Positions 13,313 to 61,829 of a stretch of DNA of 64,000 nt are shown in pieces. Each line of letters opens with the position of its first letter. Positions within the stretch are counted from its first letter, which is position 1. The DNA comes from an uncultured Phycisphaerales bacterium (GTDB lineage Bacteria; Planctomycetota; Phycisphaerae; Tepidisphaerales; Tepidisphaeraceae): positions 288,001 through 352,000 of the forward strand of contig CAVWLP010000002.1 of the NCBI GenBank assembly GCA_963755915.1, written 5' to 3'. The notes beneath the pieces are model-generated. The model saw only the letters and a program-made list of their open reading frames with translations. It ran no database searches and was not told the DNA's origin. The position numbers and the translations under genes are program-made.

Positions 13313-14050
13313 CTAGAGATTGCGCTGGCCGAGGAAATGGTTGGCGAGAGAGGCGAGACCGGTGACGAGGTGGGCATGTTCATCGGCACTGAAGTTGTCG
13401 ATGGAGGCCATGCCGTAGCCTTCGATTTCGGGCTGGATCGACGACACTGCATCGGCTTCTCGCCGGGCGTCCTGGAGTTCCTGCAATTCGATATTGCGGG
13501 CTTTGTCGAGGCCTCCGCCGCGGATGAATTCGATGATCTGGCGGATTTCCTCGCGGTCGAGCCATATACCGTGGCGGCCGCAGACGTTGATGATGATGCC
13601 GGAGCGGCCGGCGTAGTTCATGCGGTTCATGATGTTGCCGCATTGCGGGCATTTGAGATAGCGGACGCTGGGATCGAAGGCAACGGGCGGCGGGACGCGT
13701 AAACCGGTCGCGGCCTGCTGGGCCTCGGCTGTGGAACAAATGTGCTCGAAGTTAGAGACGTCGATCCACAGGCCGCCGCAGCGCATGCACTCTTCCAGCG
13801 GCGTGGTCGCGACCTCGACGGCGGTGAGCTTTTCATTGCAGCGCGGGCAGGAGTGAGTGGTTGCCTGGCCTTGGGCGATGTTCTGAGCGACGGCGCCGCA
13901 GTGGGGGCAGAATTTTGAGCCGGCGAACATCATGCCCAGGCATTTCGGGCAGGCGACGGTTTGGAGCAGGGCGTGGCAGTATTGGCACTGAGTGGAATCG
14001 GAGGAGACGGCGGAGCCGCAGTTGGGGCAGTTGAGGGTGCCGGCTTGCAT
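13313..14050 (-). CDS. Multi zinc-ribbon (DZR + zf-TFIIB) protein
   Basis: Eight CxxC/CxxH knuckles; CGGLWID and HGIWLDREE motifs. Confidence 0.85.
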   Translation of the reverse strand: MQAGTLNCPNCGSAVSSDSTQCQYCHALLQTVACPKCLGMMFAGSKFCPHCGAVAQNIAQGQATTHSCPRCNEKLTAVEVATTPLEECMRCGGLWIDVSNFEHICSTAEAQQAATGLRVPPPVAFDPSVRYLKCPQCGNIMNRMNYAGRSGIIINVCGRHGIWLDREEIRQIIEFIRGGGLDKARNIELQELQDARREADAVSSIQPEIEGYGMASIDNFSADEHAHLVTGLASLANHFLGQRNL

Positions 14051-14103
14051 GGGTGCGAGTATAACCGCGGAGGTGGGTTCTTTAAATTTCTCTTGTCTTT
14101 GTC

Positions 14104-14155
14104 TTTCTTGGCGCTCTTGGCGTCTTGGCGGTTACAGGATTTTTAACCGCCAAGA
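14104..14155. repeat. Palindromic repeat (TCTTGGCG units) split by an IS1111; remainder at 15637-15657
   Basis: Left arm tttcttggcgctcttggcgtcttggcggtta. The rejoined right arm is taaccgccaagacgccaagagccaagaaa. Confidence 0.85.
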
Positions 14156-14266
14156 AACTATGAAGCCGAGCCTTTCTCGGGACGTGAACGGGGTCAAAAT
14201 GCCCCAAGTATGAACGAGCGTACCGCGTAGGTCGCTCAAACGTCTTTTTTGAGAAAGGACTCGGCA

Positions 14267-15310
14267 ATGCGAATTCTCGCTTTGGACCTGGGAAAGAACA
14301 AGAGCGTTTTTGTGGATTATGTCACCGGCGGTGGAGAAAGAACGTTCGGCAAGATCGGCACCAATGCCCACGAGGTGCAAAAACTACTCGAGCGGGTGCG
14401 TCCGGATCGACTGGTCATCGAGGCCGGTCCGGCGGCAGGATGGGTTTGTGATCTGGCGGAGCGGAACAATGTTCCCGTCCAGGTGGCCAATGGCAACGAT
14501 GAACGCTGGCGCTGGAAGACGGTGAAGGAGAAGAGTGATCGTAAAGACGCGCTGAAGATGGCGGCGATGTCGGAGATGGATTCGCTGCCGACGGTGCACG
14601 TGCCCAAGGCATCGGTTCGGCAGTGGCGTTCATTGATTGAATACAGACACGGCCTGGTGGATCGCCGCACGGCGCTCAAGAACTCGATCCGATCAATCTA
14701 CGAGCGGCAGGGTTTGTATTTGCCCTCGGCGACCAAGGCGTGGACGAAAGCGCGACTGGAGGAAATGAGGAAGGAAGCAGCGGCCGCATCGGCGGAAGAT
14801 CTGTGGCTGTTTCAGATCGGTTGTGAGGTGGCGCAACTGGAGCACCTGGAGAAGCAGATCGAAACTGTCGAAAGCAAGCTTCAGGAGTTGGGCCAGGCCA
14901 ACAAAGCGGTGAAACGATTGCAGGAGGTGCCCGGCGTTGGTCCGCGGCTGAGCGAGGCGGTGGCGGTGATCATTGATGATCCCAGGCGATTCAAGAATGC
15001 ACGTCAGGTGGGATGTTACGTGGGTCTGACGCCGCGGCGCTGGCAGAGCGGCGACAGCGATCGCCAGGGGCGGATCAGCAAGGCAGGCAACGCGCTGCTG
15101 CGGGAGTTGCTGGTGGAGGTGGCGTGGCTGGGGGTTCATCGCAATACGTGGATGAAGGACGTGTACGAGAGGGTTCTACGTGACAGCGAGAAGCGCAAGA
15201 AGATCGCGATTGTTGCGGTAGCCAGGAGATTACTGGTGAAGCTGTGGGCGATGCTGCGGGACGGAACCCGATGGAGAGAACCCCAGCGATCGCTGACGGC
15301 GGCCACTTGA
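14267..15310 (+). CDS. IS110 DEDD transposase/recombinase
   Basis: LALDLGK, VIEAG, KSDRKDA, VPGVG, QSG, GRISKAGN and AVARRL motifs; RBS AAGGA. Confidence 0.95.
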   Translation: MRILALDLGKNKSVFVDYVTGGGERTFGKIGTNAHEVQKLLERVRPDRLVIEAGPAAGWVCDLAERNNVPVQVANGNDERWRWKTVKEKSDRKDALKMAAMSEMDSLPTVHVPKASVRQWRSLIEYRHGLVDRRTALKNSIRSIYERQGLYLPSATKAWTKARLEEMRKEAAAASAEDLWLFQIGCEVAQLEHLEKQIETVESKLQELGQANKAVKRLQEVPGVGPRLSEAVAVIIDDPRRFKNARQVGCYVGLTPRRWQSGDSDRQGRISKAGNALLRELLVEVAWLGVHRNTWMKDVYERVLRDSEKRKKIAIVAVARRLLVKLWAMLRDGTRWREPQRSLTAAT

Positions 15311-15615
15311 AAATCGAAAAGGCGATGACTGTCCCGACAAGTCGGTACAGGCGATGGAGTATCTCCCCTCCGGAAGACACCGTGTCAGAAAGCCGTTGTC
15401 TTCTGTGCAGGGGATTGAGTAGAGTTGAAGTGAAGTGGAATTGACGCGTTCGTGCAGGTTGAATGAGCAAGGCCAGACCCCGGTTGGCGTCTTAAGCTTC
15501 AAAGCTTGCCGCTAAGAATAGGGCTGGCCATTTGTACAGTTGAATAGGCCCGCCGCCAGGCGAGAGCACTGAATAGAAGGCTCACCCAATCGACCGCATG
15601 AGCGATCAACGCCCC
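15311..15615 (+). ncRNA. Putative bridge/seek guide RNA of IS1111 #1 (ends uncertain)
   Basis: Stem 15471-15480 / 15521-15529 encloses TTGGCGTCTT and CCGCTAAGA, which match the two target halves. ATAGAAG (15573-15579) matches the element end. Confidence 0.78.
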
Positions 15616-15621
15616 TTGACA
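15616..15621 (+). promoter_or_regulatory. Outward -35 box for the circle-junction promoter
   Basis: TTGACA next to the right sub-terminal IR, as is typical of IS1111 elements. Confidence 0.6.
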
Positions 15622-15682
15622 AGGCTCGGCTCATAGAAGACGCCAAGAGCCAAGAAAATGCAGGAGGGTGAGATTTAACGCG

Positions 15683-17165
15683 CTAGCGTAATCCAAGTTC
15701 GTCGAGCGCGGCGCCTGCGCCGGAGAGATGGTCTGGATTCATTTCGGAATAGTTGCGGCAGAGGACTACGCCGTCGGCGCCGCCTTTGAAGGCGGCGATG
15801 GTGGCGGCTTTTACGCCTTCGGCGGTGGACTTGCTCGCGCCGGGGGGGACGGGGACGTCGATGTCGATTCCCGGCCAGACGGAGACACCCCGGCTCTTCA
15901 CGTCGTCCACCGCCCTGGCGGTTTCGCGCTGGACGTAATCGGGAGAGAGGCCGGTGGCCATGACCTTGTCGAAAGGGGCCTCGTTGTAATCGAGGAAGCG
16001 ATAGAGCGCGCCCAGCGCTTCGGGCTTGGAAAAATCTCCCAGGATATTTTGGGTGGCGCTTTCGGTGAAGCTGTGAATCCGCTCGCCGGCGGCGTTGTTG
16101 TAGAGGACGGGTTTAATAAAATCGGAGAATTCGGCGATCCGCGTATAATCCATCTCGGCGCGATGCAGGGGGCTGAAGGAGACGTTGTGCCAGATGTGCC
16201 AGCCGATGGGGATTTGGGGCTTGATCGACTTGACCAGCTTGTAGATCTGCTTCTGCAAGTCTTCGCGGCTGGTGATCCAGAGGTTTTCCCAGGCGAGGAG
16301 CTCGGGGTAGTTGAGGAGAAGGCGGAAGAACTGGACGAAATAGCCGTCGCGGGGGCGGGTGTTGGCGCGGCCCTGGCGGACGAATTTTTCGAGCTCGGCA
16401 AAGCCGCGGCGGGCGCGGTCGGGGTCGATGCCGGTGTCCTTGGCGCGCTTTACGCAGAATTCGCAGAAGCAGGTGGCTTTGCCGGGGTCGGCGGACTGGC
16501 CGTGGGCGTAGGCGCCGAGAGCGTTGAAGAAACCGCCCTGGCGTTCGGAGGACCACATGACGCCGTCGATGTCGTAGGAGCGAGTAAGGTCTTCGATGAG
16601 GCCTAGCACGAAGCCGAGATAGAGGGGGTTGTTGTAGCACGGGCCGGCGGGGTGGGAGAGGGCGCGGCGGCCGTGGAAGTCGATCTCGTAGAGTTTTTCC
16701 CAGGCGGCGGAGGGGGCGTGGTCGTGATCTTCGAGGACCCAGGCGAAGGTTTTCATGCCGTGCTTTTTGGCGACGGGGATGATGCGGGCCATCACGTCGG
16801 TCTCGCCGAAATCGGGGGCACGCATGTCGGCATAGGTGAGGGAGGTCTGCTGGTAATATTGCATGTGGGGGATGGCGAAGTTTCCGCCGTGGAATCCGGC
16901 GGCGGGCATGCCGGCAGTGATGTGGGCGTAGGTGTAAATGAAGGGGAAGAGGGTGTTGACGCCGCCGCGATGATTCAAGTCGTCGAAGAGGTGGTCGAGG
17001 TTGCCTGTGGCGAGGGGTGGGAGTCCCATTTGGATTCCGATGGTCGGGGGCTTGCGCGGGCGGGGTTGATTGGGCGTTGGTTTCTACGCCCGAGACCGCG
17101 GCGACGCCGATCGCGGCGGCGGCTTTCAATACATCGCGGCGCGTCCAGGGGGTAATAGGCGCCAT
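15683..17165 (-). CDS. Tat-exported putative glycoside-hydrolase-like protein (frameshift near 17040)
   Basis: TRRDVLKAAA Tat signal in a different frame from the 448-aa body (DIDGVMWSSERQG, CFCEFC). Confidence 0.7.
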
Positions 17166-39973: not shown

Positions 39974-40864
39974 TCACGCCGTCTGGCCGGCGGATACCCC
40001 CACATCAGAAGACAACGGCGGCTCTGTCACGGTGTCTTCCGGGGGGGAGCACCCTTCATCGCCGGCGGTACTCCGCCGTCCTTTTGGATTTGTCTTTTCC
40101 GGTGTCCCGGATTGGCCTGCCGTGAGCGAAGTCGAATGGCCCCCATGCCGAAGGCGGTAGCTCTTGCCGGTGATGTTGATGATCGTGGCGTGCTGCAGGA
40201 ACCGATCCAGAATGGCCGTGGCCGCCGGCACGTCGCCGATCAGCTTGGCCCAGTCCTCCAGTGGACGGTTGCTGGTCATCATCGTCGAGCGGTTCTCGTG
40301 CCGGCGCATGACGATCTCCAGCAGGCATTCGCCGCTGCGCCGCGGAAGCTGCTTCATTCCCATGTCGTCGATGATAAGCAGATCAGGCTTGAGATACCGG
40401 GCCAGCGTCTTGTCCTGGGCTCCCAGATCCTCGTCGCCTAAAAAGTCGCGGGCCAGGTCGAAGATGGATCGGTACAGGACCACCAAGCCGCTCTTGATCG
40501 CCTGGTGTCCGATGGCCTGGGCCAAAAACGATTTGCCCACGCCGGGCGGACCCAGCAAGAGCACGTCACGTTTGTCACGAATGAACTGGCCGGCGGCCAG
40601 ATCGTGAATCTGTTTGCGTTTGATGGAGGTGTTGAAGGAGAAGTCGAACTCGTCGAGGTTTTTGGTGTCGCGGAACATCGCCGCCTTGACGCGCCGGCCG
40701 ATCTGCCGGCTGGATCGGACGTTCAGTTCATCCTGAAGGATCAGTTCCAAAAACTCACTGTGGTCGAGCCGATTGCCGGCCGCCTCGCTCAGGCGAACTT
40801 CAAGGCTGCTCGCCAGACCTGAAAGCCGAAGTTGCTTGAGCGTCTGCATCAACGAAGGTCTCAT
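39974..40864 (-). CDS. istB: IS21 helper ATPase
   Basis: GPPGVGKS, LLIIDDMG, TSNR and AILDRF motifs. Confidence 0.95.
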   Translation of the reverse strand: MRPSLMQTLKQLRLSGLASSLEVRLSEAAGNRLDHSEFLELILQDELNVRSSRQIGRRVKAAMFRDTKNLDEFDFSFNTSIKRKQIHDLAAGQFIRDKRDVLLLGPPGVGKSFLAQAIGHQAIKSGLVVLYRSIFDLARDFLGDEDLGAQDKTLARYLKPDLLIIDDMGMKQLPRRSGECLLEIVMRRHENRSTMMTSNRPLEDWAKLIGDVPAATAILDRFLQHATIINITGKSYRLRHGGHSTSLTAGQSGTPEKTNPKGRRSTAGDEGCSPPEDTVTEPPLSSDVGVSAGQTA

Positions 40865-42565
40865 GGGGTGGACTCCCTTCGGCTCTGCTCAGGGCAGGCC
40901 TGTAAAGGTTGTGCGGCAGGCAAAGCCTCCGCTTGGGTGATTGCGTCGCGTACGAACTGTCCGTAATCGGCCAGTCCGCGGATGATTGGATGTTCCTGAA
41001 CAAACTCGAAGTGTTGTTGAACCGGCGCACCGTTTTGGTGTTCGATGAGCTGCCGCAGGGAGCGCAGGTGATACGCGCCATGCCCCAGAGCAATCTCGCA
41101 GGCTCGTTCCACGGCCGGTCGCGGCTGCTGATTGGCCAGCGACAGCAGCCCCATCAACACGCGCACGCCTTCGATGCCGCGATGCTGAAGCATTGACTGC
41201 GCCCACTGCGTGGCGTGCGGCCCGATGCATTCGATCCGCTGGAGAAGCCAGGTCGTTCCACGCTCGATGCCGCTGATCTTCTCCGGCAGGATATGGGCGT
41301 CTTGCGTCGAGAACCTGCCCGGCGGACGCTGCGCGTGCAGAGCGATCGCACGCATCTTCTGATCGAACAGCCGGACCGTGCGCCGTCCCACCGCGCCCAG
41401 ACCCGCTGGCCCAAAAACTCCGGCGGGACCGAATAGTACGCCCCCTTGATCTCCACGTGCCCGTCGCGGTGAACACTGCGCAACGCCTCGGTGAAAAGAT
41501 CGAATCGCACCGGCGGCAGAGCCAACAGTGCCGGCTTCTCTACCTGCTCGAAGACTTCCTTCACCTGCCGCCGCGTCGTGCCGTGGATGCGCGTGTCGGC
41601 CACGCTCTTCTCCCACGTCAGCAGATGCGCGTTCTGATCCGAGAGCGAGGCGAATTGCCGGCCTTTGAGAGCATTGCTCTTCACATAGCCGATGCCCCGC
41701 TCGATCTTCCCCTTGTGCCGCGGCGTGTACGGCTTGGTGGGCAGAATGGCGATTCCATAATGTTCGGCGAACGACCGGACCTTGGGACACAACTCCGCCT
41801 CGAACCAGTCCGCCCGCGTCACCGCCGCGCGAAGATTGTCGATCACCAGCGCTGACGGCATCCCGCCGAAGTGCGTAAAGGCATTTTCCAGACAACGCAG
41901 AAAATCATCGGTCGTCTGCCGCTCCACCGCCTCGGCGTACCCCTTGCGGCTGTGGCTCAGCACAATGCGGAAGACCCAGGTTGCTTTGCGTTTGCCGTCA
42001 GGACCGACCAGGGCGCACCCCGGCCGAAGTCCACCTGCACTCGGCTCCCGGCTCGCATTCCATCCGGCGAAAGGGCGCCGGCGCGGCAGCCGAGAGCTTC
42101 TTGATGAACCGGCGCACGCTGTAATAGCTGCCGGCATAGCCGTGATCGCTGGAGATGTCTTGATAAATCCGCTGGGCCGTCAGCCCGGCTTCCAACTTCT
42201 GAACAATGACCTCACGCCAGGGCGATGCCGTACTGACCGACCCGATGGGCGCACCGGATAACCCGGTGGGCGCGCTCTCCGAGCCGCCTGCGGCGAGCAC
42301 CGTCGAGCCGCCTGCGGCGAGCACCGTCGAGCCGCCTGCGGCGAGCACCGTCGAGCCGCCTGCGGCGAGCACCGTCGAGCCGAGGGGCGCGCTGGCCGGT
42401 TTTGAATCCGATCCGGGCACCGCAGGATCGCCGCCCGACAACCGGATGTGGCGTCCAACGGTCTCCCGGTGAACGCCGAGTTGGCGGGCGATGTTCCGAT
42501 TGGACCAGCCGCTGCGCAAGTGCCAAAATTGCTTGTACTTCCGCCATCTTGAGTTGATTGGCCAT
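40861..42565 (-). CDS. istA: IS21 transposase (several frameshifts)
   Basis: HTH; VLSHSRK, VIDNLRAAV, PRHKGKIE and YSVP motifs spread across frames. Confidence 0.9.
42280..42382. repeat. 24-bp tandem repeat x4.3 (in frame, STVLAAGG)
   Basis: Exact cgagccgcctgcggcgagcaccgt units with no spacers. Confidence 0.9.
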
Positions 42566-42681
42566 CCCACCATTGGCTTGCGGCAACCGCCGAAAGCCAA
42601 GGTCGATAACCCAATCTCCTGTGCCTCAAAATGGCCGGTTTTGGCGCGCCCTCAATTGGCCGGTTTTGCGCCCCCATGACA

Positions 42682-60700: not shown

Positions 60701-61829
60701 CGGACGAGATCAGTTCCTTATGTCTTTTGCTTCCCGGTCTTGGGGGCGGCACCTCCTGATAATCCTGGTTGTTGTTCCACATTGAATAGACGATCCGACA
60801 TATGCGGTTGGCGACGGTGATGTAGCCGCGACCGCGGTCCTGTTTGCCGTTGTTGGTACGGCGATTGAAAAGTTCTCGCAAAAAAGCGTCCCTTTGCACT
60901 GCCGAGTGGGCGGCCTGAATAAAGGCCCACTGAAGGGTAGTGCGACCGGCGTGACCAAGTCGGCGGCCGATGGGCTTGGCATCGCGATCTTCTCCGCTGT
61001 CGTCGGCCTGCGGCGCCAGCAGGCTGTATTGGAGCAGGCATCGACTGGAGGAGAAACGATCGATTCGGCCGATCTCGGCGACCAGCGTATATCCCAGCAC
61101 GGTGGAGATGCCCGGCACGGTCATCAGGCGCTGGCCGATCTCCGATCGTTTCATGGTCGCGCGGAACCGGCGGGTGGCCCGTGCGATCAGGCGACGCAGA
61201 GAATCCAGCAGCATGAGATCTTCCTTGAGCGTCTGGCGTCCTGAGAGGCTCAGGGTCTTGTCCTCGGTGAGCAGCGACAGGAAACGCCGGCCCTGCACAC
61301 CGAAGAGGTCGGTGAGCTCGCTGACGATTCCATGGCGGTGCAGCGTCGCGTGAATGCGATTTTTCAACTGCGTTTGAGCCTGAACGAGGGTCATCCGATG
61401 GCGCAGCAGCTCCCGCTGATCACGAATCTCGCGTGGGGCCAGCCAGACTTCCCACCAGCGCTTCATGATGCCTCGCTTAAATATCGGTTTTTCGTTCCAG
61501 AGTTCACTGAGCAGGTCGGCATCGACCTTGTTGCTCTTGGCGATCCCGCGTCCTTCCCGCCATGCCGCCACTTTGCGGCTCGAGGCCAGGTGGGGCTGCA
61601 TGTTCAAAATCTGCAACTCATCGCTGAGCCATCCCCAGCCAAATGTCGCTTCCAGGATCACCGGCGTGCCTCGCGGCCACTGAGCGATTCGCTCTCGAAG
61701 CTTTTGGCGATCCAGGTGATCCAGGCGTTCGCGAGCAATGACCTTCCCGGAAGCGTCGCGCAGACTGGCGGACGAGAACTTCCGATGGACGTCCAGCCCT
61801 ACCTGAACTACCTTGTCGTATAACTTCAT
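60630..61829 (-). CDS. IS110 transposase/recombinase
   Basis: VGLDVH, ILEAT, KSNKVDA, VPGIS and DDSGE motifs; RBS AGGAG. Confidence 0.92.
   Translation of the reverse strand: MKLYDKVVQVGLDVHRKFSSASLRDASGKVIARERLDHLDRQKLRERIAQWPRGTPVILEATFGWGWLSDELQILNMQPHLASSRKVAAWREGRGIAKSNKVDADLLSELWNEKPIFKRGIMKRWWEVWLAPREIRDQRELLRHRMTLVQAQTQLKNRIHATLHRHGIVSELTDLFGVQGRRFLSLLTEDKTLSLSGRQTLKEDLMLLDSLRRLIARATRRFRATMKRSEIGQRLMTVPGISTVLGYTLVAEIGRIDRFSSSRCLLQYSLLAPQADDSGEDRDAKPIGRRLGHAGRTTLQWAFIQAAHSAVQRDAFLRELFNRRTNNGKQDRGRGYITVANRICRIVYSMWNNNQDYQEVPPPRPGSKRHKELISSGSGPALARIGHEPEAIQAREATL

Follow-up and report, generated by a model that had tools for sequence, protein, structure and literature searches.

In a 64,000-nucleotide (nt) stretch of contig CAVWLP010000002.1 from an uncultured Phycisphaerales bacterium (hereafter the window), a 1485-bp insertion sequence (IS) of the IS1111 family lies at 14155-15639 on the forward strand, where it splits a palindromic repeat. 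The repeat is made of TCTTGGCG-type units and can be read at 14104-14154 and again at 15640-15657. Its left arm (14104-14133) and loop (14134-14144) precede the element, followed by the first unit of the right arm, AACCGCCAAG (14145-14154), which forms the left target flank and ends in the core dinucleotide AG. The right target flank, ACGCCAAGAGCCAAGAAA (15640-15657), supplies the rest of the right arm. Excising 14155-15639 restored AACCGCCA-AG-ACGCCAAG. A first-pass annotation of this DNA, made from the letters alone, had proposed such a restoration by removal of 14155-15637; the idea stood, but that interval leaves two bases over, the insert being 1485 bp and not 1483 bp. The frame of the insert is ambiguous, as it can be shifted within an AAG common to the left flank and the right end. 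On re-reading the sequence, we found every string quoted in that annotation in its place.

The ends of the element carry subterminal inverted repeats 3 nt in from each terminus. The left repeat, CTATGAAGCCGAGCC (14158-14172, forward strand), is the reverse complement of the right repeat, GGCTCGGCTCATAG (15623-15636, forward strand), with 14 matching positions and one indel, and the right repeat is followed by A and the core AG (15637-15639). Every relative with a left end kept the left repeat. Non-coding sequence extends over 329 nt 3' of the gene versus 112 nt 5' of it. Subterminal repeats and a longer downstream non-coding region set IS1111 elements apart from IS110 proper (PMC11187229; PMC11208160), and IS1111 transposases have ~330-350 amino acids (aa). 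The repeats seen here fall within the 7-17 bp of IS1111 members, and the longer non-coding region is likewise the downstream one.

The transposase gene (14267-15310, forward strand) encodes 347 aa, with an N-terminal DEDD/RuvC-like domain and a C-terminal IS110-type domain. The N-terminal domain matched PF01548 (40.6 bits, cut-off 29) and the C-terminal domain PF02371 (86.2 bits, cut-off 21.3), while residues 4-334 matched the NCBIfam model NF033542, 'IS110 family RNA-guided transposase' (216.6 bits, cut-off 140). With these matches above cut-off, the identity proposed in the first pass, an IS110/IS1111 DEDD recombinase, was borne out. Among seven relatives, down to 30% identity, residues E52, D91, D94, S261 and G262 were invariant, and D7 was conserved in the six rows of the alignment that reach the N terminus. 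We take D7, E52, D91 and D94 to be the catalytic DEDD tetrad. The C-terminal half aligned to the transposase chains of ISCro4 and IS621 (9t56_A and 8wt6_A), with GLTPRRWQSG placed over GLTPRRYESG of the ISCro4 chain 9t56_A, and the GL-P----SG serine motif was conserved among the relatives. The motif G(L)-P----S/T-G is the C-terminal signature of the IS110 family (PMC11187229).

The genome that contains the window (G000) holds nine full-length copies of the element, which delimit its extent. Seven are identical and two carry a single C>T in the open reading frame (ORF), which is open in all nine. Every copy lies in one orientation at the same site, with AACCGCCAAG immediately to its left and ACGCCAAGAG immediately to its right; the element therefore has a single target and orientation, the target is restored on excision, and empty sites exist. 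The first pass had suggested mapping the other copies and their flanks as a check, and this mapping gave one site type for 9/9 copies; unrelated sites were not found. We found 14 genomic occurrences of the empty site AACCGCCAAGACGCCAAGAG and 21 of the shorter CCGCCAAGACGCCAAG; most belong to intact palindromes, which carry them in both arms. In all, we counted 13 complete palindromes, 22 free sites and 9 occupied ones, so the repeat is multicopy, as annotated, in only modest number. In 3/9 copies the left arm of the palindrome was not visible in the 70 nt shown upstream, and the target therefore appears to be recognised by its sequence rather than by hairpin shape. Palindromes of TCTTGGCG units are common across the genus, with 69 matches listed in genome G124, 27 in G123 and 8 in G121; almost all are short and fall on the palindrome part of the query, against the 13 complete palindromes of G000.

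Because seven of the nine copies are identical, two differ by one base and all nine ORFs are open, the copies point to very recent movement and expansion of the element. In soil DNA contigs, the element stood at ~5x the depth of its flanks. Contigs of the sequencing runs, which cannot show rare circles, yielded no joints, circles or empty sites. In relatives, synteny at this locus ends before the palindrome, and the orthologous locus thus offers no empty-site comparison.

Downstream of the gene, the non-coding end is predicted to contain a long seekRNA, or bridge RNA, of ~157 nt (15448-15604, forward strand), closed by a basal stem (15448-15462 with 15590-15603) and divided into two arms. The whole non-coding end was more stable than its shuffles (z = -5.19), and 15448-15604 folded at -66.2 kcal/mol (z = -4.52), a stability equalled by 0 of 200 shuffles. 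The basal stem could form in 18/18 lineages, with a mean of -20.8 kcal/mol versus -12.3 kcal/mol when the 3' strand was shuffled; 11 of 360 shuffles reached this mean energy.

The first of the two arms, which we call the target arm (15471-15529, forward strand), was delineated from sequence, fold and covariation. It consists of an outer stem (GGCCAGACCC at 15471-15480 with GGGCTGGCC at 15521-15529), an internal loop and an inner hairpin with AAGCTT (15494-15507, forward strand). The 5' strand of the loop, TTGGCGTCTT (15484-15493, forward strand), comprises a T guide, UUGGCGU (15484-15490), a CU opposite the core AG (15491-15492) and a constant U, and is complementary to the top strand AAG-ACGCCAA. 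The 3' strand (15509-15519, forward strand), within which CCGCTAAGA spans 15509-15517, comprises a B guide, CCGCUA (15509-15514), the core AG (15515-15516) and a constant AAU; it equals the top strand CCGCCA-AG with one C>U. Because the B strand pairs with the bottom DNA strand, this C>U gives a U.G wobble. The earlier description of the change as compatible with G-U pairing is chemically sound for the same reason, and the claim that two loop segments read both strands of the element's own site held, both in their positions and in their covariation with the flanks of relatives.

Since the target repeats CGCCAAG units in tandem, the two guide strands can also pair with each other (UUGGCG at 15484-15489 with CGCUAA at 15510-15515). 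Such self-pairing is weakened by the C>U in the B strand, which keeps the wobble to DNA; one relative, L120, has the unmodified CGCCAA.

To judge how often such strings arise by chance, we shuffled the 329-nt non-coding end 2000 times with its dinucleotides preserved. An exact antisense match of at least 10 nt to the site appeared 7 times; the 9-mer, allowing one mismatch, appeared 143 times, and the two came together once. As in the published seekRNAs of ISEc11, ISPa11 and ISKpn4, the top-strand match precedes the bottom-strand match in the 5'-to-3' direction, with an overlap at the insertion point (PMC11187229). The architecture of the target arm was identical in 20/20 lineages. Stem covariation was measured on a right-anchored alignment (A3) together with per-sequence folds: across the distal outer stem and the inner hairpin, 91.7% of cells were paired and 6/9 pairs had changed on both sides (36 cells), for a covariation score of 0.526 versus 0.252 in shuffles (0/500 reached the observed value) and at most 0.18 in controls with a slid partner. 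In a plain MAFFT alignment of the entire RNA, two clades stand one column out of step, and RNAalifold consequently missed the target arm there. A search of the genome for orphan copies of the RNA gave none; four extra near-matches were attributable to chance.

Relatives of the element use other sites. Among 141 genomes of the same order, 16 had a relative at E <= 1e-40. In G124 (90% aa identity, same ends), 4/4 copies are inserted between GACGCCAAG and AGCGCCAA (AGC...), one 8-bp unit along the same repeat; in G123 (73% aa), 14/14 copies follow CAGGCCAG and precede CC(A/C)...; and in G138 (68% aa), 2/2 copies lie between GCTACAG and GG.... Over the last 200 nt, G124 and the window element differ at nine positions, three of which fall next to one another in the 3' end of the T guide (15490-15492), and the G124 guide is the reverse complement of AGAGCGCCAA, its right flank. 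The loop strands of G123 and G138 read their own flanks. Sites of the G124 type, CGCCAAG followed by AGCGCCAA, are available in the window's own genome, 8 bp from the occupied ones; 22 are free and 0/22 are occupied.

Scanning metagenomes with a 16-mer taken from the second arm returned at least 118 stretches, and 80 loci were examined. Sixty of the 80 listed loci had none of the element's other features and were discarded as chance hits to the 16-mer; 20 metagenome elements, among the matches listed, added further sites. The 17 with a right end found (15 with a left end) carry the ends of the window element, and at every delimited left end the flank finishes in AG. Metagenome and genome relatives combined, there were at least 13 site types. 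Among named organisms, the closest relatives come from metagenome-assembled Phycisphaerales and Pirellulales genomes, and the best plasmid-borne relative in a plasmid collection has 40% aa identity.

Guides were then scored against flanks in fixed alignment columns (8 nt T and 8 nt B) for the 16 lineages with both flanks. This set omits L106 and L126 (no flanks), L159 and L132 (one flank), L148 and L119 (duplicates), and L153 and G138 (outside the alignment). Guides matched their own flanks at a mean of 11.3/16 positions (n = 16), compared with 5.9/16 for the flanks of others (n = 236 pairs), and 14/16 lineages scored at least 10/16 against their own flanks. Across lineages, the T guide covaries with the right flank and the B guide with the left: where the flank has CAGGCCAG in one lineage and CAGGCAAG in another, the B strand shows the same change.

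The G123-type target, CAGGCCAG followed by CCAAC (L051, L066, L075 and L077-L087), lies ~35-40 nt upstream of a conserved ATTCGAG, which is itself the insertion point of L103- and L122-type elements. This proximity implies that two related IS lineages aim at two positions within another repeat family.

The second, putative donor arm (15530-15589, forward strand), identified from the fold and from relatives, has a 5' strand ACAGUUGAAUAGG (15536-15548), an inner hairpin (15551-15562) and a 3' strand CUGAAUAGAAG (15569-15579). The 3' strand contains ATAGAAG (15573-15579), which equals the right end of the element including the core (15633-15639). Both strands are unchanged in G000, G124, G123 and G138, which were found by protein and share the same ends, while their target loops differ. 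In L093 (51% identical), a right end of CATAGGAG goes with the loop strand GGAUAGGAG, that is, the donor 3' strand follows the change in the right end. We also sought the ends of relatives with 39-46% aa identity by an inverted-repeat search, which did not delimit them, so L093 is the sole test of the donor arm with different ends. The sequence of the arm makes donor binding by its 3' strand likely. As for the donor match at ATAGAAG noted in the first pass, its 3' strand repeats the right end as described, but a partner strand with clear complementarity to the left end was lacking.

Near the right end, TTGACA (15616-15621, forward strand) is a candidate -35 box: with the ends joined, GAAACT would complete a junction promoter. 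It lies 18 nt from the right end and, in the joined ends, 17 nt ahead of GAAACT. TTGAC was kept 18-19 nt from the right end in 18/18 relatives that reach it (L126 has TTGACG). Circular forms with a junction promoter (Pjunc) are known from IS110-family elements (PMC11187229; PMC12288879), and by analogy a promoter would form at the junction of a circular form here. In four relatives with 44-46% aa identity (L055, L056, L058 and L071), the B strand and the donor 3' strand have CG or UG in place of AG as the core dinucleotide, which hints at a different core.

Taken together, we hold with high confidence that 14155-15639 is an intact, recently expanded IS1111-group element of the IS110 family, guided by an RNA from its 3' end at about 15448-15604. 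Its site specificity, its protein family, the conserved architecture of the RNA and the covariation of guides with flanks were all observed directly. The interpretation offered in the first pass, an apparently intact RNA-guided recombinase aimed at an intergenic repeat, is supported by the 9/9 copies at the site, the protein matches and the loop-site covariation in relatives. Mechanistically, the DEDD transposase would be guided by the 3' non-coding RNA through the one arm with an internal loop. The 5' loop strand, UUGGCGU-CU, would pair with the top strand of the core AG and the right target flank, and the 3' loop strand, CCGCUA-AG, with the bottom strand of the left flank and core; this pairing would place recombination at the AG between the first and second CGCCAAG units. 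The second arm would probably hold the element's own joined ends. By analogy with characterized elements, the RNA is presumably made, processed and bound by the transposase, and a circular intermediate would undergo strand exchange at AG.

Several results weigh against this account. The first pass had proposed folding the region and comparing it with covariance models: the fold did give a two-armed RNA, but no curated Rfam match was obtained, as a scan of 13900-15900 against Rfam 15 (E <= 10) returned seven weak matches, none at the gathering score and none in the RNA region. The only signal from an RNA library, a 205-nt metatranscriptome contig identical to window positions 15270-15474, stops before the guide arm and, as DNA is possible in that library, is not evidence of expression. 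Two of the 16 scored lineages, G124 and L163, fit poorly in the fixed register. For G124, the T guide matched at 2/8 positions, rising to 7/8 when the junction is read 1 nt to the right, a shift that is permitted because the donor junction and the target share AAGA. For L163, the left flank fits (7/7 by eye), and the right flank matched the T guide at 2/8 positions (4/8 with wobble; 4/9 when re-registered by eye). In many lineages the B guide matches at only 5-6/8 positions. Pairing between the donor 5' strand and the left end could extend over only 4-6 nt, and this strand contains no complement of the core. Finally, because a 16-mer of the donor arm served as the query for the metagenome loci, conservation of the donor motif among them is there by construction.

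We considered whether the target-like strings are a captured and decayed copy of the palindrome and not a guide, the site being chosen by the protein or by a DNA hairpin. Such an origin would account for TTGGCGTCTT also occurring verbatim in the left arm of the palindrome and for the ability of the two strings to pair like a mini-palindrome. We nevertheless regard it as highly improbable. The targets of many relatives are not palindromic (for example, CCGGTGAG followed by GGAGTAG, CATTCGAG followed by TAAACG, or the G123-type site), which implies that the loop strings are not a captured repeat copy; in these lineages the loop positions match the flanks within a conserved scaffold. The three copies without a left arm in the 70 nt upstream also speak against it. 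It is somewhat less improbable, yet still unlikely, that the element is an IS1111 member that is no longer mobile or whose RNA is not expressed in this host, with the copies as relics of one burst. The contigs, in which neither a circle junction nor empty-site polymorphism was seen, are what such a relic would leave, but contigs cannot show rare circles, and the near-identity of the nine copies and their nine open ORFs argue for very recent movement.

A guide confined to the short target arm (~60-80 nt), with the second arm acting as a processing or stability element, has a greater chance of being right, although we still favour the two-armed RNA. An 82-nt seekRNA is enough for ISEc11 transposition (PMC11187229), and the 5' strand of the second loop has no clear complementarity to the left end. 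Set against this, the 3' strand is identical to the right end, core AG included, and follows its change in L093, both strands stay constant in the window element and its three genome relatives while the target loop varies, and bridge RNAs with a donor loop are predicted for IS1111 elements (PMC11208160).

Within the RNA-guided reading, we offer a more tentative proposal, which we think rather doubtful as it stands: that this planctomycete clade holds its ends and donor arm fixed and alters only ~14 loop bases to reach at least 13 natural specificities, and that the crossover dinucleotide may slide from AG to GA within AAGA. The idea of a slide arises because the 8-bp hop of G124 accompanies a CU-to-UC change opposite the core. 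If true, the core itself would be guide-programmable in IS1111 elements, and the pattern of fixed ends and variable loops would amount to a natural rule set for retargeting.

Other parts of the element may bear on its expression. The 5' untranslated region (UTR; 14165-14265, forward strand) is predicted to be structured, with a long-range stem (14165-14179 with 14250-14265) over the GAAAGGA ribosome-binding site. The segment 14155-14290 folded at -56.2 kcal/mol (z = -5.19; 0/200 shuffles equally stable). In this model, by burying the ribosome-binding site, the stem likely holds back translation of transcripts that read through from outside. A strong hairpin module (15350-15415, forward strand) lies after the stop codon and before the guide RNA and is present in 52 copies in the genome, nine of them in copies of the window element. 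The module spans 60-65 nt, reads CCCCUCCGGAAGACACCG...CGUUGUCUUCUG...GGGG and stands directly 3' of the transposase stop. A further copy in the window, ~85% identical, lies at 40006-40063 (reverse strand) after an IstB-like ORF, in a position shared by two IS21-like variants. One solo copy has a T-tract like a terminator, and the module also occurs downstream of the ORF of L055, a relative with 46% aa identity from another genus. It had no Rfam match. This hairpin, which the element has in common with unrelated IS21-like elements, may serve in 3' stabilisation, processing or termination and may have passed between IS families.

Insertion sequences are abundant in this genome. An IS21-like element with IstA/IstB-type ORFs occupies 39974-42600 (reverse strand) of the window; counted by their 3' module, there are ~31 copies of one IS21-like variant and ~10 of a second. 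Another IS110-family transposase, at 60756-61673 (reverse strand), has 22% identity to the one described here and 4 genome copies, and a third IS110-family group, with 30% identity, has 6 genome copies, all outside the window.

Mechanistically, the element brings nothing new. It has already been published that IS1111 elements are guided by an RNA encoded downstream, that their strand order is reversed, that they are reprogrammed both naturally and by experiment, and that they insert into repetitive extragenic palindromic (REP) sequences (PMC11187229; PMC11208160). What the element contributes to a known mechanism is a series of natural retargeting events, well resolved and from a sparsely sampled phylum, for an enzyme class under development for genome insertion. 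The landing pad is a REP-like repeat family of a bacterial genus, in which closely related elements discriminate positions 8 bp apart. The case also indicates that, from sequence alone, a reader can pick out an RNA-guided recombinase and both its guide and its target.

Of the characterized systems, IS621 resembles the element in its two-loop bridge RNA that reads both strands around the core and in its REP target, and the C-terminal alignment to 8wt6_A agrees with this. In contrast to the element, IS110-group members typically carry the RNA in the left end, upstream of the gene, and have the order of strand matches reversed (PMC11187229; PMC11208160); IS621 itself has no long subterminal repeats. 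ISPpu9 and ISPpu10 of Pseudomonas putida share REP insertion, recombination at AG, circles and a junction promoter (PMC12288879). By the same account, the bridge RNA of ISPpu9 lies ahead of the tnp mRNA in a transcript from the native promoter, whereas here it lies in the 3' end; ISPpu9 also carries the small RNAs Asr9 and Ssr9, which were not seen here, and the window's genome is without orphan RNA copies.

Likeness to ISPa11 of Pseudomonas aeruginosa extends to an IS1111-type transposase, a downstream seekRNA and a fixed position in a REP-type palindrome (PMC11187229). Compared by description and not by sequence, the two differ in the target repeat, which here consists of TCTTGGCG units, and while the ISPa11 seekRNA is transposase-bound (PMC11187229), the RNA described here is predicted from sequence. 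The retargeting series itself has its counterpart in ISEc11 and ISXne4, where natural redirection likewise combines a conserved stem with changed loop bases and a changed target (PMC11187229), as in G000, G124, G123 and G138. Here, by comparison, the series includes a hop of 8 bp inside one repeat that goes with only three adjacent base changes, and at least 13 site types are reached from one scaffold.

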